64,000 bases of DNA from Antedon mediterranea (taxonomy: Eukaryota > Animalia > Echinodermata), in the NCBI RefSeq assembly GCF_964355755.1, contig NC_092676.1:29875499-29939498 (forward strand), given 5' to 3'. Shown here in pieces: positions 2,591 through 54,400 of this stretch. The position numbers and the translations under genes were made by a program. The first letter of the stretch is position 1, and the number at the start of each line of letters is the position of its first letter. Below the pieces are notes generated by a model. It was not told the origin of the DNA. It ran no database searches and was given only the letters and a program-made list of their open reading frames with translations.

Positions 2591-2769
2591 GTCTTACCTG
2601 TAAGTTGCTTATGTTGGATGAGTTTGAGTAGTTGGGAAGAAGGTATTTGTATCACACCTGGCCTCAAATCTGCCATGTTTACATTTGTGCCATTTGAACT
2701 GAAATCAAAACACAGATTGAAGAAAAATATGAAAAAAAATCAAAAGACAATGCAATATCAAATATTGTA

Positions 2770-3330
2770 CTTGACCTAGTACAGTATATTATGGTACAGT
2801 CGGAGTATATTATGGTACAGTATATTATGGTACAGTATATTATGGTACAGTATATTATGGTACAGTATATTATGGCACAGTATATTATGGTACAGTATAT
2901 TATGGTACAGTATATTATGGCACAGTATATTATGGTACAGTATATTATGGTACAGTATATTATGGTACAGTATATTATGGTACAGTATATTATGGTACAG
3001 TATATTATGGTACAGTATATTATGGTACAGTATATTATGGTACAGTATATTATGGTACAGTATATTATGGTACTGTACAGTATATTATGGTACAGTATAT
3101 TATGGTACAGTATATTATGGTACAGTATATTATGGTACAGTATATTATGGTACAGTATATTATGGTACTGTACAGTATATTATGGTACAGTATATTATGG
3201 TACAGTACAGTATATTATGGTACTGTACAGTATATTATGGTACAGTACAGTATATTATGGTACTGTACAGTATATTATGGTACTGTACAGTATATTATGG
3301 TACTGTACAGTATATTATGGTACAGTGTAT
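2770..3330. repeat. 15-bp minisatellite (GGTACAGTATATTAT)n of about 37 units, with variant units (GGCACAG.., GGTACTGTACAG..) concentrated at the 3' side.
   Basis: Direct reading of the sequence. The six-frame ORFs 2791..3378, 3087..3458 and 3182..3370 are translations of this repeat (MVQYI..). Confidence 0.95.
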
Positions 3331-3686
3331 TATATACCAATACAAATCATTTATATACCTACCGTTTTAGTAAAATAATTGGTTGGTTTGTCTGTGTAAA
3401 GACAGTTATTTCAGCATTTGTGACTGGGGTTTCTGAACTAGTTTGTGTTGTAATGTAGGTCCTCTTCTGGGCTCTTGGTCTAGTGTTTGATAAGTTGTTG
3501 GACTGGTATGGTTTAAAAGAAGCTACTGTGCTGCCATCCACTTTGGGTAAGTTTGTAGACTTTGGTACAGACAGTTTTGGAATTTTACCTAATTGCTTGC
3601 TGTCAAATTCCTTTTGGAGAAGAAAGATTACTATTTTCAGCAATAAAAATCATTTTTTAAAACCAATTTGATATTAAATTTCTAAA

Positions 3687-14484: not shown

Positions 14485-19552
<5,068 letters not shown>

Positions 19553-20672
19553 GTAAAAAACAAGCAGTCTGTGACTTAACTGAAATGTTAACTGTTACTT
19601 AGCTTCATACTAAAGACACTGAGTTGTTGCCACATCCTCCAATACCTTTGAATGTAACAATTGTTTTAATGCTACAGTTAACAGTTTCAAAAGTAAGTGG
19701 TATATTATGGGAAAACCTCATCCCAAAAAATGTTTCAATGCTAGATTTTTTTAAAGATTTTAATATCTGATTTTAATAACTGACCAAGAATGATGGAATC
19801 AAAAATGAGATGAATAAATTTAAATATTGGACATAAAAAAAATATTTTAATAAACCATGTAGAATCTTAAAAGTTTGTCCTAATGAAAGCGCCCTCTATT
19901 CTTGTTTAAGCTTTTTTTGTATTTCGTGTCCAAATATCAAGCCAGTTTTCAGCCTTTTTGATAATGTTATGATATGTTCCATGCTAATTTGGCAGTTGTA
20001 AGACAGCTCATGTTATTTGTATATTTAAATAATTTATATACATATGTGTATTAAGACTAGCGATAATGATGTATTTTAGTCGACTGTAATATATGACATG
20101 ATTTTATAAAATATAATAATAAAATGTATGCTAAACAAAAAAAATATTTATTCTACAAAAATTCGCTTACCAAATTAATGGACTAATAATTTGTAAACAT
20201 TGTAAAAATTGTAGTAATATTATTTGTAGGACTTGGAACTTAATATTTCTGCTAATAAGAACTACTTTAAACTTACTTGTACATATTAGGGTTCACATTC
20301 TGCTATTGATACTTTTCTATTGATACTTTGCTATTGATACTTTGCTATTAATACTTTGTCATACTCTTACTTGGTATACAGTAGGCCTATATGTTCTGTA
20401 GTTTAAGTTGTTTTATTTTCAATGTTGATGAATACGCGACCAAGTAAAAATTTTGTTGGTTTGTATGGAAAAATGAGTTTGTGGATAGTATTAATAACTA
20501 TCCAAGATTTGATCAACGACGACCTGGGAACTGGTGACGCCATGTTAATTCATTGTGCGCATGCAAAGACATTGAGATGTGCTTACTTGCCTGTGCAGTT
20601 GCTTCACAAAGTTTTGACGGAGTATAACATGTACAGAGGTGATGATCAACAAAACAATTGGATATGTCTAAA

Positions 20673-21332: not shown

Positions 21333-24300
21333 TCACGTACTGCTCTCTCCCGACGCCGTGCTTAATGATCGTCGTTGTCTTTGTAAATACATAGAATTAA
21401 CCAAGGTTCGCGTCGACGTTCCGGTCGGTAAACGCAATCTGGTATCTATGGGTGCTGTATCGTCTACTAATGGCTTAACATATCGTATAGCATAAATCTT
21501 AATTACAAATATACAAATTAAAACAACCCAGCAATTTAATATAAGCGCACTGGCTATGTATATACATTTCGTAAAAAGTTCTTTTTCATCAGTTACAAAA
21601 TACGGTGGAAGAAACGCCAGCAGTATGACGACTGTAGTGAAAGAACAGAAACTTAAAAATCTAGATTCGTAATAGTTATCGGGAAGGCGACGAGCCTTAA
21701 ACACAGACGCACAGCAAACAAGGATGAAGACGAAATTGTAGGCTAGACTGGTGATCACTTCGTTTATTTGGATGTTACACGCAAGCTCGATTCTTGGTGA
21801 GTCTCCCAAGACTTTGCGAGGAAGTACGTCTGGTGGATACAACAGCAACCAAACACTGGATATTATAACCTGGAAATAAATATTACAAAATTTCAGAATT
21901 AGTTGGTTAGATCAGGGAGTTGTAATTACAACTCCCTGGGTAGATCATTAATTGAAGGTTTGCATGGCGAAATCAATATGTTAATATAAAGTTTGCGGTA
22001 CAGCCCTACATCTTGTTCTGCAAAGAACTGCTAAAGTTCCTCGACGTTTCGATTGTGCTCTAGAGCAACAGCGATCTACAGTACATCACCAGATCATTGA
22101 GTGACATTAATTATAACACGAAAGTGTAACTTCTTTTATTATTGAAATTTCAGGAAAAGGGTTCTTGTTTATTAATATTTCTTATCCATGCAAAACATAA
22201 ATAATTGGTTTAATACCTGTATAGAAACAACAATCAGTAAGATTCCAAGTTGTTTCGGTCGTTGGATTAGTTTTGGATTTTCTGTTGAATCTGTAGCAAA
22301 TGCAACCGAAAATATTTTCTGAAGTCTAATACTCTTTAGAGCCATTGATGAATACATTAGGCAGCCTCCGATGGCGGGTAGAAGCCTTGCCGCCGCACAA
22401 ACAGTCTCACTGGGTTTAACAGCAAACGTTATTGTAGCTACCAACACTATTGTCTCACCAAATAAAATGAGATAATTTAGAAGGGGCTCAGAAGTTTGAA
22501 GAATCTGCTCCTTTCGGTAGAAAATGAAGAATATGAGTACGATTAAAATGCCTACAAGTCCGATCGATGCCGTTATAAGAATCAGAGAACCAAGATGGCT
22601 TCCCCAACTGACATAAACTTCCTCCAGTACAAGACATTCCATATGCGTGTTGTCAGGACCAGTTGACCCGTTACATTTCCAGCATTCCTTGTCATTATCA
22701 GGATCTACAATTGTGTCGTCAATACATGCTTTACATTCCCAACAACATCTCACTCTTTCGTAAATCAATACAGTTTGAAATCCGGCTGGACATGTCTCAC
22801 TACATTGGGATTGTGGGATCGACCCGTTTATCGATGATTTCACCGACCAAGTAATGTCATCATTAAAATCAGAGAAGCCGTCTGTAGTAGTCCATGTTCC
22901 CACAGGGTAAGCGCGTAACTTCCCAACTACGGCATCACGTTGGAAATAACTCATCCTGTAACGCCCCTGGATGTCTCCGTGTGAATCGAACTCTATGCGC
23001 CCGTTAACAAGACTGTCAAAAGATGTTCTTCGTAATTCTTCCAGCAAGATGTCACCTGGCACCTGTTGCATTATTTCAACACATTTGTTGTTGGTCGGTT
23101 TAGTATCGTGACAAAGTGAGCTTTGTATGCTGTGCAGTGCGTAAGCGAACGCGTATACGCTATCCATCACTAAGGTATCGTGTGAATCAGTGTCGTCCTC
23201 ATCAATGCATGACGTCATTGAGCAATTTTTTTCGTAATACTCAGAAAACCAAGGATTGTTTGACGTTAATGGAGTAGTTGAGATAAACGATAAATCGAAA
23301 GCCCGTAATCGTTCTGAATACGGTACCATCGTGAACGATCCTTCTGCTGCAGCTTCGTGTTCTACAATGCCTTTAACTCCAGCATTCCCAATGGCGTCAC
23401 TTGCGATCCATATAAAAACACCAGTGGCATTGAGACGCTCTACAGCATCAAATACAGCGTTGGCCGTTTCTAAGTCTAAGAACAATACCACCGCCACTGC
23501 ACCTCTGTCTAAGAGTATTTGTACTATCTGCTTCATGTTACTATCAACTGATACAGCTTCTTCGACTGCTAAACATATTTGATCTGCTGATTGTTTCTGG
23601 AACTCGCTGTAGCCATTGCGCCCGTAACTGTCATCAGAGTACAGAATAGAGACGTATGTCCAGTTGAAGTGGAGAACCAGATCAATCATGGCAGTCACCT
23701 ACGAAAAATCAAATATTAAGGCAAAATTAAAACAAACACTAACGAGTGTAGAATGTTTCCATTTATAAAGATTTGTTTCAACTAAGACGCAGCGCAAGGA
23801 CGACGTAAGCGCAAGGATGACGTAAGCGCAAGGATGACGTAAGCGCAAGGCACAAGCACAATTAATTAAAGTGTACAAAATATTGAAAGAAGAGCAAATA
23901 AAATGTGTAATATGTAAAGTATAATTATACGCGCTAAAATCGACTTACCTGGAATCTATCAGGCGGTACAGTCCTAAGAAAATACTCATACTTAATCTTG
24001 TCGCTAAGTTCATCACTGGTTGACAGGTAGCTAATCTGAGGAACGTTGAATAGACCCAAAGTGGTGGCTGCCTGAATACTGCTACTACTCCTCTGAGCAC
24101 CAATCACACCAGAAATATTACGGAATTGTGTACAATCTGTTGGTGGTGGAGCTATACAACTCCCAACACATGTCTCTTGTTCGTTTACATGTTCCTGATC
24201 TAGCACAAAGTTAACACTTTCCCCCAAAGCTACCGCATCATAGTAACATGTATCTCTGATATCAAATCCTAGTTTTATTCCAGGTAACATTTTTAAGTCT

Positions 24301-24539
24301 TTGTTTATTTTATCAACAGCGTACACTAATGCCTCGACTCGTTTGATGTATGGAACGGCTAAAATGCCTTCACATTCACCACTCGTCTCGTTGTATTCAT
24401 GAACTGGCATCAACGCCCCAAGAATCAAGTCACCGTCTACAAAATATCTATCTGTTGAAGATGATCTTGCCAAGCAGAAGAGAAGCACCAAGTTGAAAAC
24501 GTTCATCAACATATATTTAGGCATGGAAGATTGAAACAT
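21333..24539 (-). CDS. Class C GPCR (metabotropic-glutamate/calcium-sensing-receptor-like). It has a signal peptide, an ANF-receptor-type ligand-binding domain, a 9-Cys domain and a 7TM_3 region. Three coding exons.
   Basis: Exons (minus strand): 23949..24539 (start MFQSSMPKYMLMNVFNLVLLFCLA...), 22217..23698, 21333..21869 (stop at 21333). Junctions are CCAG|gtaagt...ttttcgtag|GTGACT and ATACAG|gtatta...tttccag|GTTATA, all phase 0. Motifs TVPPDRFQ|VTAMIDLVLHFNWTYVSILYSDDSYG are typical of the mGluR Venus-flytrap lobe-2 region. The Cys-rich domain is CSETCPAGFQTVLIYERVRCCWECKACIDD...CWKCNG. The seven hydrophobic helices include TM4 split by the second intron (LGILLIVVSIQ|VIISSVWLLLYPP). Confidence 0.8.
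22217..23698 (-). CDS. Class C GPCR large exon (Venus-flytrap C-lobe, Cys-rich domain, TM1 to TM4).
   Basis: Part of ORF 22172..23698. A donor on the minus strand at 22217/22216 (ATACAG|gtatta) precedes the in-frame stop of the raw ORF. Continuing into the 21869 acceptor restores a full 7TM. Confidence 0.75.
23793..23850. repeat. (gacgtaagcgcaagga)x4 microsatellite in GPCR intron 1.
   Basis: Direct reading. Confidence 0.9.
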
Positions 24540-25861
24540 GGCGGATACGTTTAATTACCAAATGTGAAGTCTATGTTGTATTTTTAAGTAACTGATCTGG
24601 AGGAGACAGCATAATTAATGAAAATAGTTATCTTGTTGACACAATCATCGATAGTCTATTATTAGGTCAGTTAATTAATAATTAAACATTCGACATTCTG
24701 TTGAGCATATGACAAATTCTCATCAGCTGTCAATCCAGTCCTCATACCATTGAGTTCCTGTATACAATAACAAAGTATAGTATATAAATGAATAAGTCGA
24801 ATATTTTATATATTTTTATGGCCGACTTCTGTCGTAAACGACAATGTCAATTAGTCTTACATTCATTTGAATGATGACTAAAAAGCCAGGACTGTTTAAA
24901 TCAGTTTGGCTGGTCCCAACATTGACCAAGGGCTTCTCTCGTCTCCAGTTCCCACATTAACCAGGAGAGGCATAGGCCAATGCGTCTGAGGCAGATACTA
25001 GTCGAATAACGGTTTAAATATTACAAAGCCTCGCAAACAGTATATTAAGCCTACTGGTGTGTCCCAACTTACAAACTTTAAACCCCTTTAAACAATTTGG
25101 AACAAACCTGTCTACTAAAACTATAATAGAGGCATCAAACCTTTACAGTTGCAACCGTTTTACCTTTTCATTTAGGCCGTTGGAAATTGATTTAAAGTGA
25201 AGATACTGATAGACCTAGCTAGACAAGAACGAACTTTGTTTTGCGATTGGTGTTATATGGATGTGGGCATATAGAATGTTAACACTCAAAGTCCAGTAGA
25301 TATATTGAGTGAGTAAACTTTGCTTTATTCTATATTACCTAAGTCTATTTAAATAATCTAAATCAGACTGATAACAAATTGATAACGTTTGTAATTACTT
25401 AATGATCATTATCGGTAGATTCGGAAACATTTGATGACAGATTAACCCTTAACCCATTGAATAACAAAATAAATAATTAAATAAAATATAGTTATTGAAT
25501 AATAGTTTTTCAAAATTGTTATGTCTAATAGTTTACAACTACGACGCTCTGTACAATTTGAAACCGAAGTCTCCTATGTAATATTTATCTATATAAATGT
25601 ATGAAATATATTTTCCTTGTTTATCTTCAAAGAATGAACATTTTGAAAGGAAAGGGAAAAGGTTTGTCCATGGAGGTATAACATTTATTTGATTACACGG
25701 CCTCTGTTATGGTGCCGTTCGAAATAACAGTGACAAAGATTTCGTGGTTGGTTGAACATTATGGGTATGTCTGTTTTGTTATTCAAGGTTTTTGGACATT
25801 GAAAACTTAATTCATTAGATTTTCAGATTAGTACTGTAGTAGACACTGGTGAGAAACGAAC

Positions 25862-29054
<3,193 letters not shown>

Positions 29055-33516: not shown

Positions 33517-40659
<7,143 letters not shown>

Positions 40660-45922: not shown

Positions 45923-47731
45923 TTACTCACCAGAAGAATACAGGTCAACTGGTCGGATCCTTCCATCTTTTCCATATTCGAATAGACAGTTTTTGTTTAT
46001 TGCGTAACCTACACCTTTATGTCGATAATCTGGATCCGCCGATGTCAAACCAGTGGTTGGGGGATGGAACGCCTGAGGAGTAGTGCAGTGTGGGCTTAGT
46101 TTGGGACCAATGTGAGAATAATTGATTGGAGAACTTGTTGAACTCTGAGCTGTGGCCGAACTTGAAAGGACAGTTTTTCGTTTCTTTGTGCTTAGATCAT
46201 GGGCAGCTGTTGTGCTTAGATCATGGGCACCTGTCGTGCTTAGATCAAGTGGTTCCTCGTCATTTGATGGTCGTTTTTGTCCGTGCTGCTGTGAGCTGCT
46301 GAAATTGTAATAATGCATTGGATATGGTGTTCTGGTCATTACGGGTATCGGTAGCGGTTGTGTAGTAGGCCTACTTCCGGCGGGCATCATGGGAACATGA
46401 GAGGGATACGACGTGTGGGTGTAAATATTATGTCTGCTTACTGGAAGAGGCGTCTTCGGTTGTCTACAAAACCTTTGTACAATGTGTTGGTTGGCAAAGA
46501 TTGGAGGATACAGTGAAGATTGCGGATGAGGTACGTTTCCAACTACTTGGTTTTTCCGATTTGCCAAAGGTGTCGGCAGGGGAATTATGTCTGGTGTATT
46601 ATAGTGGGAGTACGCAACTGGTTTGTAAATATCTTGTACAGCTTGTGACAGTGCGAAAGGAGATGGTAGATGGCTCACTGGACTACCATTGTTTCCAAAC
46701 TCTTGGCTTAGGCCTACTGGAATTGGTATCTGCTGTATTGGCGAATCATCAACGCTTTGAGGAATTGTGTCGGATGACGTCACTCTGTGGTTGAACTGTA
46801 CTTGGTAAGTATCTTGACTAACGTCTCCAGATTGTCTGTTTATACATTGGTTTACTGGAGTTGTCATTTCTGGGTTGACAGTTTTGCCGCCAACAGCACT
46901 GGACAAAGCGACAGGAAACGGTTTACAGGGAGAGTCCTCGACGATTTGGAGTGGACTCTCTGGGCTGGCCACTCTTTGTGGTGAATGTTGTAATGGCGAC
47001 TCTGCAGTGCGATCTTCTGTATCATTTTGGAAGGACGCGACTGTACATGGTGTCTGTCCTCTCCTTACGGAATAATTACTATCACCACCATCACTCACTG
47101 CAAGATCTCTGTTATTGTATTCCAGTTTCTTTTGGAAAGCCATCAGCTGCTGAGGAAATGAACTATCAACAGTTTCAATAACTTCTCGTAAATATATCTG
47201 ATAGCGTATACGTAATTCAATGGTGTTCTTCTCGGTATTGTCAAAATGTTTACCATCGAAATTCAGAACCCAAAAGTTATCCTTTCCATGTGGTTTATCT
47301 GGCCGACGTAGGATCTTTTTGAAACAATCATTGCAGCTCAAGTTATGCCGAACACTGTTCTTCCAACCGGTGTATTCACCTCGAAGAAAATAGAAAGCGT
47401 TCGACATAAAATCAATGATATCTTTAAAGGTCATCATGATTTTTGGGTTTAAGTCAATTGACAAAATTATCATCTCGATGTATGAAAATGGAGAGTTGAA
47501 ATATCGCATTGTGTCAGACTTTCGCTGTTTTTTGTTTAATGTTAACGGTATGGCCGGTGACATGTATGTATCGGTTGGGTCAGAGGTCATGTCATCCGGT
47601 TCTAGTTTGACATAGACGTTGTCCGAGCTGCTATTCTCACATTTTTCCAATTTAACAGATTGAAGAGGTTGATCGCAGACAGTTGAATCCGGAGAGGTTA
47701 CCGCGCTTAATTCTTTCCTTACGCCAGACAT
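45923..47731 (-). CDS. Forkhead-box transcription factor, FoxN-like (FoxN1/4 or FoxN2/3 type). Apparently intronless, 602 aa.
   Basis: Single ORF 45923..47731. The forkhead domain is NSPFSYIEMIILSIDLNPKIMMTFKDIIDFMSNAFYFLRGEYTGWKNSVRHNLSCNDCFKKILRRPDKPHGKDNFWVLNFD. GWKNSVRHNLS-N-CF is the FoxN-subfamily recognition-helix signature. The remainder is low-complexity and Ser/Pro/Gln-rich, as is typical of transactivation regions. A 21-bp coding repeat gives DLSTTGAHDLSTTAAHDLST near the C-terminus. Confidence 0.8.
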   Translation of the reverse strand: MSGVRKELSAVTSPDSTVCDQPLQSVKLEKCENSSSDNVYVKLEPDDMTSDPTDTYMSPAIPLTLNKKQRKSDTMRYFNSPFSYIEMIILSIDLNPKIMMTFKDIIDFMSNAFYFLRGEYTGWKNSVRHNLSCNDCFKKILRRPDKPHGKDNFWVLNFDGKHFDNTEKNTIELRIRYQIYLREVIETVDSSFPQQLMAFQKKLEYNNRDLAVSDGGDSNYSVRRGQTPCTVASFQNDTEDRTAESPLQHSPQRVASPESPLQIVEDSPCKPFPVALSSAVGGKTVNPEMTTPVNQCINRQSGDVSQDTYQVQFNHRVTSSDTIPQSVDDSPIQQIPIPVGLSQEFGNNGSPVSHLPSPFALSQAVQDIYKPVAYSHYNTPDIIPLPTPLANRKNQVVGNVPHPQSSLYPPIFANQHIVQRFCRQPKTPLPVSRHNIYTHTSYPSHVPMMPAGSRPTTQPLPIPVMTRTPYPMHYYNFSSSQQHGQKRPSNDEEPLDLSTTGAHDLSTTAAHDLSTKKRKTVLSSSATAQSSTSSPINYSHIGPKLSPHCTTPQAFHPPTTGLTSADPDYRHKGVGYAINKNCLFEYGKDGRIRPVDLYSSGE

Positions 47732-47994
47732 GTTTGCTCCACCAATAGATAGTATTGCTTGCTTATTTTATTTTTATCTGAAAATGGTAAGACAGTTATA
47801 AGATCTTATGTTAAAAACAGGTAAGTTAAAAACCATCAGTAGTGCATCAACCGTAACCTCCCCAACCCCTAATATCCACCAACACGGTGCCATATCAGTT
47901 TTATATTACGATATCAAACAAGTGGGGCTCAAAACTACTGTTTTTAACACGTGAACAACAAATTAAAAGAAGCGAGGACAATTGTATAATTATT

Positions 47995-48790
47995 CGCCGT
48001 GGCTAAAGATACGGTACCGTATTCTAACTTCTGTTTACTAAAGGTACGGTAAAATTGCATTACGTCATAGCCAACCAATGGGGTGCTGGTACGTGTGTGA
48101 CGTCATAGTATAAGGACTTTGGATTTTTTTTCATATCGTGTCTCTGTTGTTTTGTGTAGAGAATTCCTATCGGCGGCGCCAGGCTGCGTGGGTGTGTGTG
48201 CGCTGCAGATGAGGGTTTTATTTTTATTCCAAATGGCCTATTTATGCCTATATTTTTTATTAAACTTTGTTTACAATGGTGACCATAAACAACAAGCAAA
48301 TGCAGACAATAAAGGGGCCCTCAAATACTATGATTTTGACAGTAGCCCCAGGCTAACGAGTCACAGAAATCAGCGCACACATGCAGCTGGCCCCAGCCTG
48401 GCATCGCTTTCCCTACACAAACAAACTCATATACTGTAATGAGGTTATAGTAGGCGTAGTAGGCCTAGCCTAGGCCTCTTTTGAAACGGTTTTCTGTATT
48501 CTAGAATTAAAATCAACATGTTTTGGCTTTTCAATAATAATAACAGACGTAGGCTACATTTAGTTTTTGTCACACACGACGGCGATAATAGCGATAAATA
48601 AAGCATAAAGAAAAAATGCGGTTGATCACTGTTTTCGCGATATGAAAAAAATCCACAAAGTCCTTATACGATGACGTCACACACGTCCCAGCACCCCATT
48701 GGCTGGTTATGACGTAATGCAATTTTACCGTACCTTTAGTAAACAGAAGTTAGAATACGGTACCGTATCTTTAGCCACGGCGATAATTAT
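47995..48790. mobile_element. Foldback/TIR element with about 170-bp terminal inverted repeats (47995..48165 vs 48625..48790) around about 460 bp, lying 260 bp upstream of the FoxN-like gene start.
   Basis: ggtaccgtattctaacttctgtttactaaaggtacggtaaaattgcattacgtcatagccaaccaatggggtgctggtacgtgtgtgacgtcatagtataaggactttggattttttt vs its reverse complement at 48640..48790. The TIRs contain CCAAT (gccaaccaatgg) and TGACGTCA (CRE-like palindrome) motifs. Confidence 0.75.
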
Positions 48791-49396
48791 TTTATGCGAC
48801 TATTTTAATGACGGCATCCATACCTGGGCAAAGTACAATTTGTTACTAAAGCAGTGACTTGCAGCTCAATTAATTGTGCGATATATGCCTAATAATTGCA
48901 ACAGTAAAAGCTAGCACTAGATATGGTAACACTTGTGTGTGTATATATATATATATTTGACACAGTACAATATAACAAATTAATTGCTGCTACAAGTAAT
49001 TACCTATTAAGCCTACCTATATACGGAACATCAAACAGATCGGTTTGCTGGCTATCGTAATAATGACTGTTTACGTTTGGTATCAATGGTTTAAAAGCAG
49101 ACGACAGATATGCTGATTTGAATACATGTGATTTAGTCTAGTATGGTATGCTAATTAGCATATTTAGTTTATGTTAACCAACATAATGAAACGTACAGAT
49201 ACCAATCGGGAATTTAAAGTGACGTAGTAATGAATTAAGTTATTTACCGTACTTACTGTTATAATCTTATTTATTTAAATCTAAATTTAGTGTACTTAAG
49301 TCAATGTGAATAATAATATCAAAATTGTAGCATTATATTTGCGTATGCCTATAATTATATTATTAGTAATTAATATTGTAAATATTTTAATTAATT

Positions 49397-52300
49397 CTAA
49401 AGTTCAATATGTCTTTTCATGTCAAAATACTGATTGTTGTTTTCGAATTGAATGCCAACATTCTCGGCAAATTTCTTATCACTGTCACTGAAGTCATCAG
49501 GTCGACCAGCCGCATCGCCGACATAAACAGCGTTTTCTTTGTCGATTGTCTTGAATTGGTTTAAAGTACAGCTATAATAATCCCACATGCCCGTATCAGG
49601 TTTTCTATACTTGTTCTTAGTCGTGGCTGCTAACACGAACATTGGTACATCAAGGTCTGACGTGATCTTTTCCACTTTAGCCATCCACTCATCTTTATCT
49701 TGAGCACCAGATTCGATGCCGTTCTGGTTGCTCATAATCACATTATTAATGTTGTGATAGAGGTTGTCTTGTATGATTGATTTGACATTTGGAGATGTGA
49801 AAACCCAGTCGTGTTCATTTTGAGGATATGGTTTACCACTTTTTGTCTTGATAATAGTGCCATCCAGGTCGAATGAAGCCACCTGTTCATTTGAGTGAAC
49901 TCCTTTTGTTTCATAATACAACAGTCCATCTGAACGTTCAATCCACCATCCTGATTGGTCACTGAGAGGCGGGAATTGTCTAGCAGTTCGGATACCAGAC
50001 ATCTGATAAACATCTTCAACCAAGTACGAAGCTACGCCATACCATTCGTCAGCAGAATTTGAAATCATCGAACCAGTTCTAAAGAAGGCGGAAGAAACAC
50101 CCGACTCTCTGGAGACAACTTTTTTTGTTGAGATGTAGTCGGTTACTGGCAAATTAAGTTCTGGTTCTTTATAGATTAGTTCTCTTGCTGTGTCGTCAAC
50201 GTAATTTAGAATAGAAACAAACTCAGGTTGACAGTTCAAAGTGAATCGGTTAGTTGAGCCAGGTTGCCTGCCGTTATCGCCGTTCCATTTACCGACCTTA
50301 CTCCACAAGTCGTCTGGTGAAGCTTGTTTAAAGGACTGGCACCACACCATGTATACATACGGTGACGGTTCATGTTTAGGTGTAGGTTCATTTGATGGAA
50401 GAGTTGCTTCTTTTCTGTTGAAAGAAGGATAGTCTTGGATACCACAGCCGTCAACAATTAAACCAAGTGTCGATTTAGCTGCACTGTCGGCAATTTCACG
50501 TTCATCGAGGGCTTCACTGCAAATGAGAGAAAGTTTGATTATAATCGCTGATGTACCCTTTCCTGTCGGTAGCCAAATTACTTCAACCGTAGCCTTCATA
50601 CACTTTGTGACAGACAACGCCAGTTCTTTTATAGCATCTTTAGGGGACATTGGTATGTTCTCATTAACCGAGATTGATAATTCATTTCTTACTAGTAAAT
50701 TTACGTGCTTAAGATGTTGGTAAATAAGCATGTGAGTAAGTTTCTCTGACATTGCGTAGAGCGTCGCCGCTGGGTTACCGTCGGTCTGAGTTGCAAATGC
50801 AGACGCGTCACACACCCTCAGGTTGGTAACGCCTCTTACTTGAAGAAACTCGTCTAAACACTCCGGCATTTTGCATGTTCCTACTGGATGCAAGGCTGAA
50901 ACAAGCATACCTCTCATCCAAGCGTTTAGTTCGTCATCGGTGTCTACATCGAGCCCCGGTGCCACCTCATCCAACACCAAATCACGTAAACTTTTATGAA
51001 CATTTTCCCCAAAAAACATGTTTCGAAGTATTCGAATTTGATCTCGAACTAACCGAGATACCTTTTCAAATGCGGGCGTTGTGTCGTCATTGAGAGTGTA
51101 GTTCCAGCCATACTCGAGACTAGGTTTGTCAAAGATGTTTGGTGTAGTAGCATTGAGTGAACCTCGATACTCCGGCCATTGGTCAATTATACGAATCGTA
51201 CCTTCGTTTGAACCATCGTCGTTGTCGTCATTAACCGCCTGTGGAAATTCCCCCTCGTATAGATATTCTGTTTGCTCCGAATGAGAAGAGTCAGAGGTAC
51301 ATAGTGGGCCAACTTCGTCAAAAAGCTTCGAGTTGCCCATCACATACAGTTGTACGTCACTCATTTCCTCTGGTACACGAGTATTATTCGATCTGTAGTG
51401 GATAATCCAAGAAAACGGTCCATTAATGCTATCAAGATCCGCTGTTTTATAGATTTCTCCATCGATATTAATTTCTGGTGCTTGAAAGTCGTTTGAATCG
51501 GATCTTAGTTTAAGGACATATGGTACCGAAATATGATCCCATAGATGTTGGCCTACATGTTCGTTGTCGGCAACCTCTTCCACTCCAATTCTTCTTAGGA
51601 GATCCCTGGGCCCTACACCACTTACTTGCAATAAGTGTGGTGTATCAAACGAACCACCACTCACAATCACCTCTTTACTAGCACGTCGGGTACGGATTTT
51701 GTTCGATACTACGTCCAAGTATGCGACGCCAATTGCTTTACCGTTTTCAAACATAATTTTCGTTACAGTAGCAGATGTGTGGAGGTAGGGTTTATTTTGT
51801 TGATCCTTATAATAACCAGTGTAGCTGCTTCCACGACCAGTCTTCGAGGCCCGATTTTGTCTAGCTTCATCTGTAGGGACTTTGTTGTCCAGACGTAATT
51901 TGTACTGTTGGAAAACACTGCAGCTGACTCTGTTGTTCTCGGGACCATTGTAGTCTGCTGCGTATCCTTTCCATGGTTTTGTTGTATCCTCACACAAGTA
52001 TTGCATTTCAAACGGGAATTTTCTAAATGCTTCTTTGATTTGACTGTTGAGTTGCATTGGACCACCTTTACCATGCCATTGTTCACACATGTCGCCAGTT
52101 ATACCCGTTACTTCTTCTGAATCATAGTGACAGTAATGATCTTCTATCTTCTTGTAGTACTTCGAAAATTGGTCGTGTTTCCAGCCGTCTGGCCATAAGT
52201 TCAAAACCGCTGGACTTGCACGTCTAGCAATAGCGCCATATACGCGGGATGTTCCACCGCGTCCTCGAAATCGAGGGATATAGATGTGTCGGGCGTCTTT

Positions 52301-52870
52301 TTTCTTGTTGTAAGGCTTAGCATTCGGGTACGACTGCACGTTTGTACCTAAAGCTGGTTGTGTTAGCCAGAATGGATCGTGAGGTGAGGTGAATTTGTAA
52401 GAATTGGTATACCATTCATCCATTCCACTTTCTTCTGGTCCTCGTTCAAAGACGCATATCTTCCAGTGAGGTATTTCTGCCAACCGACCAGCTACAGCTA
52501 GACCTGCTGTGCCAGCACCGACAATTATAAAATCACACGAATCGTTGTCACTGAGATGCTCATCACCATAACTATGGGTAGAAAACAACAAAATAATTGT
52601 AATTTGAATGTAATGCAATCAAGCTTTAATTCCAAGGAATGTTCATAAGCGCATTCAAATAAGTGTTTGAATTAATCGAAAGTGGTGAGTGAATGTTCGA
52701 CAAAGAGAAACTTTAAAAAGCGGATAGCAATGATTTGTTGAACATGTCGAGAAACAATTCAGGGGTTATATGGACATGGAAAATAATAAAGTACATTAAT
52801 TACTGCATTCAACTTACGTAATTGCTATAAACACCAAGCCGATGAGGATGGGATGATACTTCCACATCAT
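49397..52870 (-). CDS. Two-exon gene encoding a secreted fusion protein of about 1075 aa. The order is signal peptide, GMC (glucose-methanol-choline) FAD oxidoreductase, an unknown segment of about 240 aa, then a PNKP-type HAD-superfamily DNA 3'-phosphatase domain.
   Basis: Exon 1 is 52818..52870 (ATGATGTGG.., MMWKYHPILIGLVFIAIT, donor ATTAC|gtaagt). Exon 2 is 49397..52571 (acceptor ttttctacccatag|T, 3175 nt, no stop until 49397). The first 17 codons of the raw 1073-aa ORF (MHYIQITIILLFSTHS) are intron read-through. GMC evidence: GxGxxG FAD fold DFIIVGAGTAGLAVAGRLAE..ERG immediately after the signal peptide, and the C-terminal active-site region LHPVGTCKMP...NLRVCDASAF..DGNPAAT. Phosphatase evidence: HAD motif I FDLDGTII, the PNKP-like motif II region VIMSNQNGI, motif III RKPDTGMW and motif IV VYVGDAAGR, colinear with the human PNKP phosphatase domain as recalled from memory (FDLDGTLI / VIFTNQMGI / RKPVSGMW / VFVGDAAGR). 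No kinase P-loop follows. Confidence 0.8.
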
Positions 52871-53639: not shown

Positions 53640-54400
53640 TTAAAATAATAAGCAATTTTCTATAGTTCGCGTCAGTGACCGCTTTTATGTTTTTCTTGTA
53701 ACAGGCACCATTTACTTATTTTGTTTTGTGCTATTCTTAGTAAAATATATAAAAATACTGAATTTCGTACTTGTACCTTTTATGGTAAATTTCTTCCATC
53801 GATTCCATGTACTCAAATGTAAAAAGCAATTTTCTATAGTCATTATTCGCGTCAGTGACTGTTTTTATGTTTTCCTGGTAACAGGCGTCGTTTATTTTGT
53901 TTTTATTATTATTTTATTACTCTACTATGAATTTCATACTTATATACCTAAAATGGTAAATTACCTCACGACATCCATGTACTCAAATGCACACAAATTA
54001 ACGTAGGGCTGCTGTATATTTCTATCATGTTTATCTTTACGTTAAACCATCAATACGTACGTATAGCAACCACTAAAATCTAGTCATTGTCAGATGAAGT
54101 CGAAACGTCGCACACGTACGTATTCATGAATGGTTTATACACCGAGATTAAAACATTTTTCGAAAACCTTTATTTCGTTGGGTGGTTTGGAGAACAGCCA
54201 TATGGTCTACCGAGCCGCACTAAAACCTAGCTAAATTTCGTATACCTCACGAAATTCCTTCCATTCATGTACTCAAATGTTTAAAAATACCGTACGAAAG
54301 ACTGCTGGACGGAAAAAGTAAAAAACTAACTATATTTCGTTCGACGGGTTCTGGAGAACAGTCGTGGTCTACTGAGCCGCACTAAATCTTAAGCCATTTA
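53640..54400. repeat. Two pairs of about 130-bp and about 60-bp direct repeats (53650..53900; 54170..54240 vs 54340..54400) in the MSH2 / GMC-fusion intergenic region.
   Basis: aagcaattttctatagt..cgcgtcagtgac(c/t)g(c/t)ttttatgttttc(t/c)tgtaacaggc.. occurs twice. gggt(g/t)(g/c)t(t/c)tggagaacag(c/t)c(a/g)t(a/g)(g/t)gtctac(c/t)gagccgcactaaa occurs twice. Confidence 0.7.

Follow-up and report, generated by a model that had tools for sequence, protein, structure and literature searches.

Why does a gene of the feather star Antedon mediterranea keep nearly all of its coding sequence in one exon, while it lies amid intron-rich neighbours? The gene is on the minus strand of a 64,000-nucleotide stretch of the genome (assembly GCF_964355755.1, contig NC_092676.1, positions 29,875,499 to 29,939,498 of the forward strand), which is called the window here. 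It encodes a fusion of a GMC-type oxidoreductase and a PNK3P-type phosphatase. An earlier note, made from the sequence of the window alone, had proposed a horizontal or retro-origin of the 3.2-kb exon. I analyzed the exon, its product, and its relatives in other organisms. In summary, the exon probably makes up most of a genuine Antedon gene that has long resided in the genome, is fully adapted to the host, and encodes an enzyme of the endoplasmic reticulum (ER). The near-intronless structure of the gene would be ancestral and predate the split of the marine-invertebrate copies.

The open reading frame (ORF) is real. On the minus strand, 1073 codons run without a stop over 49400..52618, and the stop codon lies at 49397..49399. 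The chance of such a 1073-codon open frame, estimated from the base composition of the window, is about 1e-36. Exact spliced mapping connected the giant exon with a short leader exon, which reads ATGATGTGG...ATTAC/GTAAGT (the slash marks the splice site). The donor ATTAC/GTAAGT is at 52818/52817, the acceptor CCCATAG/T is at 52572/52571, and the junction is in phase 2. The product of the leader exon and the giant exon is a protein of 1075 amino acids, with 100% identity over 100% of the length to the A. mediterranea protein P0001 (an "uncharacterized protein" in NCBI). One exon carries 3172 of the 3225 coding bases (98.4%), and thus the claim of a 3.2-kb intron-free exon with about 99% of the coding sequence was borne out. 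The features of the gene are as follows.

52818..52870, minus strand: exon 1, 53 nt, with the start codon and the signal-peptide core (MMWKYHPILIGLVFIAI plus 2 nt); from the sequence as read, exact spliced mapping, and identity to the NCBI protein.
52572..52817, minus strand: the sole coding intron, spliceosomal, 246 nt, GT..AG, phase 2, with a GC content of 0.31; from the sequence as read and spliced mapping.
49397..52571, minus strand: exon 2, the giant exon, with 3172 coding nt and a stop codon at 49397..49399; from the ORF and spliced mapping.
50723..52540, minus strand: GMC flavin oxidoreductase module, residues ~29-634, with GxGxxG at G36-G41 and the predicted catalytic residues H579 and N617; from Pfam and alignment.
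49910..50707, minus strand: middle region, residues 640-905, in which a small alpha/beta unit comes first and a cryptic helix-grip domain of the SRPBCC/START-like type second; not matched by Pfam.
49430..49891, minus strand: PNK3P-type HAD phosphatase module, residues 912-1065, with DLDGT at 919, SNQ at 965, RKP at 1007, and GDAAGR at 1036; from Pfam and alignment.
49400..49411, minus strand: C-terminal HIEL, a putative HXEL (KDEL-type) ER-retrieval tetrapeptide; from the sequence as read.

What kind of protein is encoded? Three Pfam matches were obtained, all of which exceed the curated gathering thresholds: GMC_oxred_N at residues 29-363 (72.4 bits, cut-off 23), GMC_oxred_C at residues 482-623 (67.8 bits, cut-off 24.6), and PNK3P at residues 912-1065 (E 4.5e-47, covering profile positions 1-161 of 161). 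The GMC N-domain has large insertions, with 335 residues versus the 218 positions of the profile. The GxGxxG motif for flavin adenine dinucleotide (FAD) reads G36-A-G38-T-A-G41. Throughout the family alignment, G36 and G38 do not vary, and neither do H579 and N617, which align with H466 and N510 of choline oxidase. The catalytic roles of these two choline oxidase residues are established. With both Pfam domains, the FAD motif, and the His/Asn pair, the protein is a member of the GMC superfamily and is predicted to function as an alcohol oxidoreductase. Choline oxidase (2JBV), aryl-alcohol oxidase, glucose dehydrogenase, and ecdysone oxidase share these features. However, the fusion protein is at most about 28% identical to any characterised, bacterial, insect, or fungal GMC protein, and it has the extra SRPBCC and PNK3P modules.

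The PNK3P module aligns end to end with the phosphatase domain of mouse PNKP (1YJ5, E 1.5e-28), and all four HAD motifs are conserved. It is a PNK3P-type HAD phosphatase domain for which activity is predicted. Mammalian PNKP (1YJ5 and 3ZVL) has the same domain with DxDGT, S/T-N-Q, R-K-P, and GDAAGR. In contrast to mammalian PNKP, the 9-residue loop after GDAAGR is deleted in the fusion protein, Pfam detected neither an FHA nor a kinase domain, and the PNK3P domain is at the C-terminus of a signal-peptide-bearing protein that ends with HIEL only 10 residues past the domain. Lacking the FHA and kinase domains, and lying outside the animal PNKP group in the domain tree described below, the fusion protein is not an orthologue of the bifunctional PNKP. 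Between the two enzyme modules, residues 640-905 have no match in Pfam, including PF10604. It was revealed that this middle region has the SRPBCC/START/Bet v 1 helix-grip fold, and thus a cryptic SRPBCC (START/Bet v 1-like) ligand-binding domain is present between the GMC and PNK3P modules. It differs from XoxI (3CNW) and the abscisic acid receptor PYL9 in having no sequence-level Pfam match.

Is the giant exon unique to Antedon? The relatives of the fusion protein and the structures of their genes are listed below, with the identities to the Antedon protein.

Antedon mediterranea: coding exons of 53 + 3172 nt.
Anneissia japonica (crinoid): same architecture, 76% identity; coding exons of 32 + 72 + 3187 nt.
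Five Mytilus species, with paralogues: same architecture, 58% identity; coding exons of 74 + 66 + 3196 nt.
Dendronephthya gigantea (octocoral): same architecture, 58% identity; coding exons of 68 + 140 + 3035 nt.
Amphiura filiformis (brittle star): same architecture, 57% identity; a single block of ~3.15 kb plus a partial tandem copy, with the leader exon unmapped.
Contig L004 (groups with Dendronephthya): one ORF.
Diplonema papillatum (protist): same architecture, 43% identity; intronless.
Bdelloid rotifers: ~38% identity.

The architecture was also found in several other assemblies. In Antedon, Anneissia, Mytilus, and Dendronephthya alike, a phase-2 intron precedes the giant exon at the point where the core of the signal peptide ends. 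The distance from this intron to a conserved Cys-Asp-Phe is 12 codons in Antedon, Anneissia, and Mytilus, and 7 codons in Dendronephthya. Since this structure appears to have been present already in the common ancestor of the octocoral, mussel, crinoid, and brittle-star copies, the giant exon is not the trace of a recent insertion. The orthologue loci sit among ordinary animal genes, such as Myb/CDC5L, patatin, thioredoxin-repeat, chromodomain, and homeobox genes. In A. filiformis (contig L003), a partial second fusion copy (residues ~340-1060, 97% identical) was found at 17880-20039, 4 kb downstream of the first. The annotated fusion copy of this locus is frameshifted ("LOW QUALITY PROTEIN"), and a gene with Exo_endo_phos and Exo_endo_phos_2 domains lies upstream.

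The position of the intron had been taken as a sign that a foreign ORF captured a host secretion leader exactly at the boundary of the signal peptide and the mature protein. The phase-2 intron is indeed at the end of the hydrophobic core but is 2-3 residues ahead of the likely cleavage site. The Diplonema homologue also begins with a signal peptide, which is encoded without an intron. Because the structure is shared across phyla and the intronless Diplonema gene already carries a signal peptide, this peptide belongs to the ancestral protein and was not added by the host.

Several variants of the architecture were also found. A GMC-only form with ~60% identity exists in stony corals (the "dehydrogenase str4-like" protein of Acropora millepora and Tara Pacific contigs), and the stand-alone proteins P0185-P0187, consisting of the middle region and PNK3P (58-61% identity), belong to the family. 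The rotifer proteins have the order GMC-PNK3P-Polyketide_cyc2. The protist-type proteins P0020 and P0021 have an N-terminal DNA/RNA non-specific endonuclease domain and a C-terminal Polyketide_cyc2 domain. Thus, an SRPBCC domain follows PNK3P in the rotifers and protists, where it is detectable by Pfam as Polyketide_cyc2 (PF10604), whereas it precedes PNK3P in Antedon. P0020 (contig L002) and P0021 are 1571-1581 residues in length, are encoded on GC-rich (56%) eukaryote-like contigs, and group with Diplonema. A Paramoeba transcriptome protein, P0315, groups with P0020 and P0021 and may derive from the kinetoplastid endosymbiont.

Could the giant exon be a processed retrogene, copied from a multi-exon gene by reverse transcription and joined to its 5′ exon later? 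The concentration of 98.4% of the coding sequence in one exon is what such a copy would leave, and a direct repeat pair (30 nt, 83% identical) flanks the gene at 49300 and 53119. However, by estimate, chance alone would give about 1.2 such 14-mer seed matches in a 12-kb stretch of AT-rich sequence. This was the sole pair, and at this chance level it was rejected as a signature of retroposition or insertion. When 1.84 billion representatives were searched exhaustively with HMMER, a multi-exon paralogue was not found, and the intron is a coding-sequence intron whose site is conserved. Since the giant exon is shared across phyla, any retroposition would predate the cnidarian-bilaterian split and is no longer testable. 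With the conserved coding intron, no multi-exon parent found in that search, and no insertion signature found around the gene, the proposed retro-origin is highly improbable.

Does the exon look foreign in its composition? The GC content of the exon is 0.43, and those of the intron and flanks are 0.29-0.31. The observation that the exon is GC-richer than its flanks was therefore correct, but other verified host exons have 0.40-0.43. The exon is GC-richer because it is coding, and there is no foreign signal in this value. The GC content at third codon positions (GC3) is 0.39 versus 0.37 in the host pool of 1760 verified host codons. For the relative synonymous codon usage (RSCU), the correlation of the exon with the host pool has r = 0.70, or 0.63 ± 0.06 in subsamples of 500 codons, while host genes correlate mutually at 0.55-0.72. 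Since GC, GC3, and RSCU all match those of host exons and genes, the composition of the fusion gene is host-like and indistinguishable from that of the neighbouring host genes, which argues against a recent or lineage-specific foreign origin.

The sources that had been suggested, bacteria and large DNA viruses, were searched for relatives. The exhaustive search mentioned above, whose database draws on NCBI, UniRef, and other public collections, revealed a family of only ~10 clusters at 50% identity, beyond which the scores are those of generic GMC or PNK3P proteins. The named animal hosts are crinoids, an ophiuroid, Mytilus, an octocoral, Acropora (GMC-only), and bdelloid rotifers. In 185,579 bacterial and archaeal species, only generic GMC proteins were found; the best ones have 24-28% identity in the GMC part only, and none has PNK3P. 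In JGI metagenomes, the family members were two short coral-like GMC contigs, and the remaining matches were bacterial GMC proteins with 24-32% identity. No relative was found in the IMG/VR viral contigs with the family alignment. The PNK3P half is closest to eukaryotic PNKPs (ciliate, nematode, octopus, insects, and fungi), with ~40% identity. A GMC gene adjacent to a dinoflagellate mycosporine cluster (PMC7875005) was also considered, and no connection with the fusion family was found.

These results bear on the idea that a bacterial or large-DNA-virus ORF was gained recently in the crinoid lineage and captured a host leader via the single intron. It is true that the gene is intron-poor amid intron-rich neighbours and that bacteria and giant viruses have both types of domain as well; among the PDB matches is Mimivirus R135 (4Z24), which shares the GMC fold with a continuous alignment over residues 26-375 (70 bits). 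However, R135 has only ~31-36% identity in the N-terminal half and no PNK3P fusion. Besides the prokaryotic and viral searches, the signal peptide of the intronless Diplonema homologue speaks against a recent gain, as does a nearby foldback element that does not bracket the gene (see below). Because orthologues with the same structure were found in four other animal groups and the codon usage is host-like, a recent crinoid-specific acquisition from bacteria or viruses is rejected as extremely improbable. The presence of a 76%-identical orthologue with the giant-exon structure in Anneissia japonica points in the same direction.

Where does the protein function? The Antedon protein has the N-terminus MMWKYHPILIGLVFIAITYG and the C-terminus HIEL, and both features are conserved in the relatives. 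The C-termini of the relatives are HSEL, HTEL, HNEL, HAEL, HIEL, KVEL, and RQEL; Mytilus has HDDL, and the GMC-only protein of Acropora has REEL. HXEL-type C-termini are thus conserved in most animal members, including the GMC-only Acropora protein. Among the relatives, P0002, P0006, P0009-P0013, P0185, and P0477 have HXEL-type ends. HXEL is the ER-lumen retrieval signal of microsomal carboxylesterases (PMC6146386). The ER carboxylesterases (HIEL in CES1 and HTEL in CES2) resemble the fusion protein in having a signal peptide and a C-terminal HXEL, but their fold and chemistry are unrelated, and the targeting logic alone is common. A protein with both a signal peptide and HXEL is expected to reside in soluble form in the ER lumen. 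The fusion protein would enter the secretory pathway and would be kept in the ER lumen, as far as its two terminal signals indicate.

A tentative reaction scheme can be drawn as the simplest way for the three modules to act jointly. In the first step, the phosphatase would dephosphorylate a hydroxyl compound that bears a phosphate. A hydrophobic or aromatic part of the same compound would be held by the SRPBCC pocket. Finally, the FAD-dependent GMC module would convert the liberated hydroxyl into a carbonyl, with O2 or some other acceptor taking up the electrons.

Alternatively, instead of an ER enzyme of lipids or small molecules, the protein might be a secretory or extracellular enzyme of nucleic acids or nucleotides, which removes 3′-phosphates and then oxidises a sugar hydroxyl with the GMC module, for scavenging or H2O2-generating defence. 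Its PNK3P domain is nearest to true DNA 3′-phosphatases, considering the ~40% identity to eukaryotic PNKPs and the catalytic motifs aligned to mouse PNKP, and in protist members the same architecture is preceded by a fused Endonuclease_NS domain. This alternative is decidedly unlikely. The animal members have kept ER retrieval motifs of the HXEL type, and the ER lumen is not known to contain a nucleic-acid substrate. The SRPBCC pocket suggests a hydrophobic ligand, the loop after the GDAAGR motif of mouse PNKP has been lost, and the kinase and FHA domains were not found by Pfam. PNKP-type phosphatase is normally a nuclear DNA-repair activity. In the ER enzyme proposed here, it is placed in a compartment without DNA, which implies a new substrate.

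How old is the fusion gene in animals? Neighbour-joining (NJ) trees were made separately for the GMC and PNK3P halves and for the full-length proteins. In the GMC-region tree, the family is monophyletic (90%) and the marine-invertebrate sequences form a clade (100%). This clade is sister to Diplonema and the nuclease-bearing forms, with the bdelloid rotifers outside (84-92% NJ bootstrap). In the PNK3P-domain tree, the marine-invertebrate clade (98%) lies outside the animal PNKP group (Octopus, insect, and nematode), although the deep nodes are not resolved. Thus, both halves group with animal orthologues, and neither is nested in a bacterial or viral clade. In the full-length tree, the crinoid sequences come together (100%), as do the Dendronephthya-type sequences (100%), and the root separates the octocoral from the bilaterian sequences, in agreement with the species tree, with a weak support of 40%. 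In the gene tree, which has long branches, animals as a whole are not monophyletic.

Because the family is patchy and animals are not monophyletic in the gene tree, an ancient eukaryote-to-animal transfer predating crinoids is possible. Its source could have been protist-like or giant-virus-like; the alternative is vertical inheritance with many losses. More specifically, an early animal lineage may have received an intron-poor gene whose source was a giant virus or a marine protist of the diplonemid type, or the gene may have passed repeatedly among sessile marine animals; the leader intron and the patchy losses would have come later, and bdelloid rotifers would have obtained their copy independently. 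Such a history would explain the few clusters in the 1.84 billion representatives and the very patchy animal hosts, and it is compatible with the marine-invertebrate clade being sister to Diplonema and the nuclease-bearing forms while the rotifers fall outside, with the intronless Diplonema copy, and with the PNK3P domain outside the animal PNKP clade. On the other hand, no donor clade encloses the animal sequences, and the nearest protist copy is only 43-49% identical. The common position and phase of the intron indicate a single origin of the animal gene structure. The root of the full-length tree (though weak), the fully host-like composition, and the absence of relatives in the IMG/VR contigs also disfavor the transfer. 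Taken together, I consider this history somewhat unlikely but a serious alternative.

Two further observations were put forward for the ancient transfer. First, the nearest non-family GMC proteins in the GMC tree form a clade that includes P0317. The P0317 gene is on contig L009 (GCA_020063875.1, JAITZF010000003.1), which is AT-rich (26-28% GC), gene-dense, and ORFan-rich. This contig looks like that of a giant virus. The neighbours on L009 are almost all ORFans, together with one ankyrin-repeat gene, as is typical of giant viruses, and the GMC gene itself is GC-richer (36%) than its surroundings. Second, a coral PNK3P gene, A. digitifera_2036, has been published as a candidate for horizontal gene transfer, with an algal source proposed (Bhattacharya et al. 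2016, PMC4878875). It is similar to the fusion genes in encoding an anthozoan PNK3P-domain protein outside the normal PNKP lineage that was reported as horizontally acquired. However, only a PNK3P domain was described for it, and it is no more than a possible member of the fusion family.

Several points weigh against the reading of the giant exon as the body of an anciently resident gene for an ER enzyme. Vertical descent needs more than 10 independent losses in animals. Amphiura and Mytilus pair in the full-length tree (83%), both on long branches, and echinoderm monophyly was recovered in 0 of 300 replicates, which is also a point in favor of the ancient transfer. The pairing of Amphiura with Mytilus and the basal position of the rotifers could be NJ long-branch artefacts, which would weaken the case for the ancient transfer. 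The trees were made by NJ only, with Kimura distances and 200-300 bootstraps. As for synteny, apart from the gene itself, no ORF of the window has a match within ±10 kb of the orthologues of Anneissia, Amphiura, Dendronephthya, Mytilus, and L004, and thus even Antedon and Anneissia share no microsynteny within this range. The signal peptide was judged by eye. The coupling of the modules on one substrate is suggested by the domain fusion and by nothing else. Moreover, the endonuclease domain of the protist relatives hints at nucleic-acid substrates, which would fit poorly with the ER lumen.

Nevertheless, the long-resident, host-adapted gene with an ancestral giant exon is the reading that I prefer. 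Grouping with animal orthologues of the same structure and host-like codon usage were both found, and these speak against the claim of a recent horizontal origin. Of the horizontal-origin idea as a whole, a recent or crinoid-specific event does not stand, while an ancient event before crinoids is possible. An intron-poor gene in an intron-rich animal genome thus need not be recent foreign DNA; in this case, the structure is probably older than the cnidarian/bilaterian split. A more far-reaching story is that early or sessile marine animals obtained a three-module ER enzyme horizontally, with a giant virus or a protist resembling diplonemids as the source, that bdelloid rotifers obtained it independently, and that it performs an undescribed coupled dephosphorylation-oxidation in the secretory pathway of corals, mussels, feather stars, and brittle stars. 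I regard this story as rather doubtful.

The modules themselves are known, but no prior description of their combination, their order, the ER targeting, or the family distribution was found in the literature searched. The fusion proteins form a small uncharacterised family, so far found only in eukaryotes, in which three well-known modules are arranged in a new order together with putative ER-targeting signals. The scattered distribution and the earlier claim on the coral PNK3P gene make the family a tractable test case of ancient eukaryote-to-animal transfer versus massive gene loss.

How exceptional is the exon in the window? MSH2, CEP57, and UTP14 are finely split, with many short exon-sized ORF pieces matching their Pfam families, as expected from the earlier description of the exon as an outlier. 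However, other long exons exist in the window: a 1.5-kb exon of a class-C G-protein-coupled receptor gene (22175..23698), a 0.8-kb exon of UTP14, and a 1.8-kb forkhead ORF. The forkhead ORF (45923-47731, minus strand) has 602 codons from ATG to stop, apparently in a single exon, and encodes a divergent forkhead domain at residues 81-157 (E 8e-21). The receptor gene (22175-24554, minus strand), with ANF_receptor, NCD3G, and 7tm_3 domains, had been missing from the earlier list of neighbours.

A foldback element had been thought to bound both the forkhead gene and the fusion gene. The element (47994..48783) is self-contained, having terminal inverted repeats of 138-146 nt that are 94-95% complementary and a 514-nt loop, and a second copy was not found in the window. 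It lies between the two genes and does not bracket them. It was thus rejected as the edge of a transferred block. As for the repeats reported at 53640..54400, local direct repeats are present there, but they are weak (73-80% identical).

Other repeats and duplications were observed in the window. A long simple tandem repeat at 2680-3455 is open in several frames (peptides YHNIL... and VYYGT...). Two tandem short-chain dehydrogenase paralogues on the plus strand (26045-28400 and 38680-40470) have nearly identical exon peptides. Between these two gene copies, a minisatellite with a GC-rich unit of 16 nt (GGGCGACTTTGCGTTG, with variants) is present in 5-9 copies at 33685-33821, 35551-35627, and 37122-37236, with one site inverted. 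An AT-rich tandem array with a unit of 74/147 nt was found at 36138-36659.

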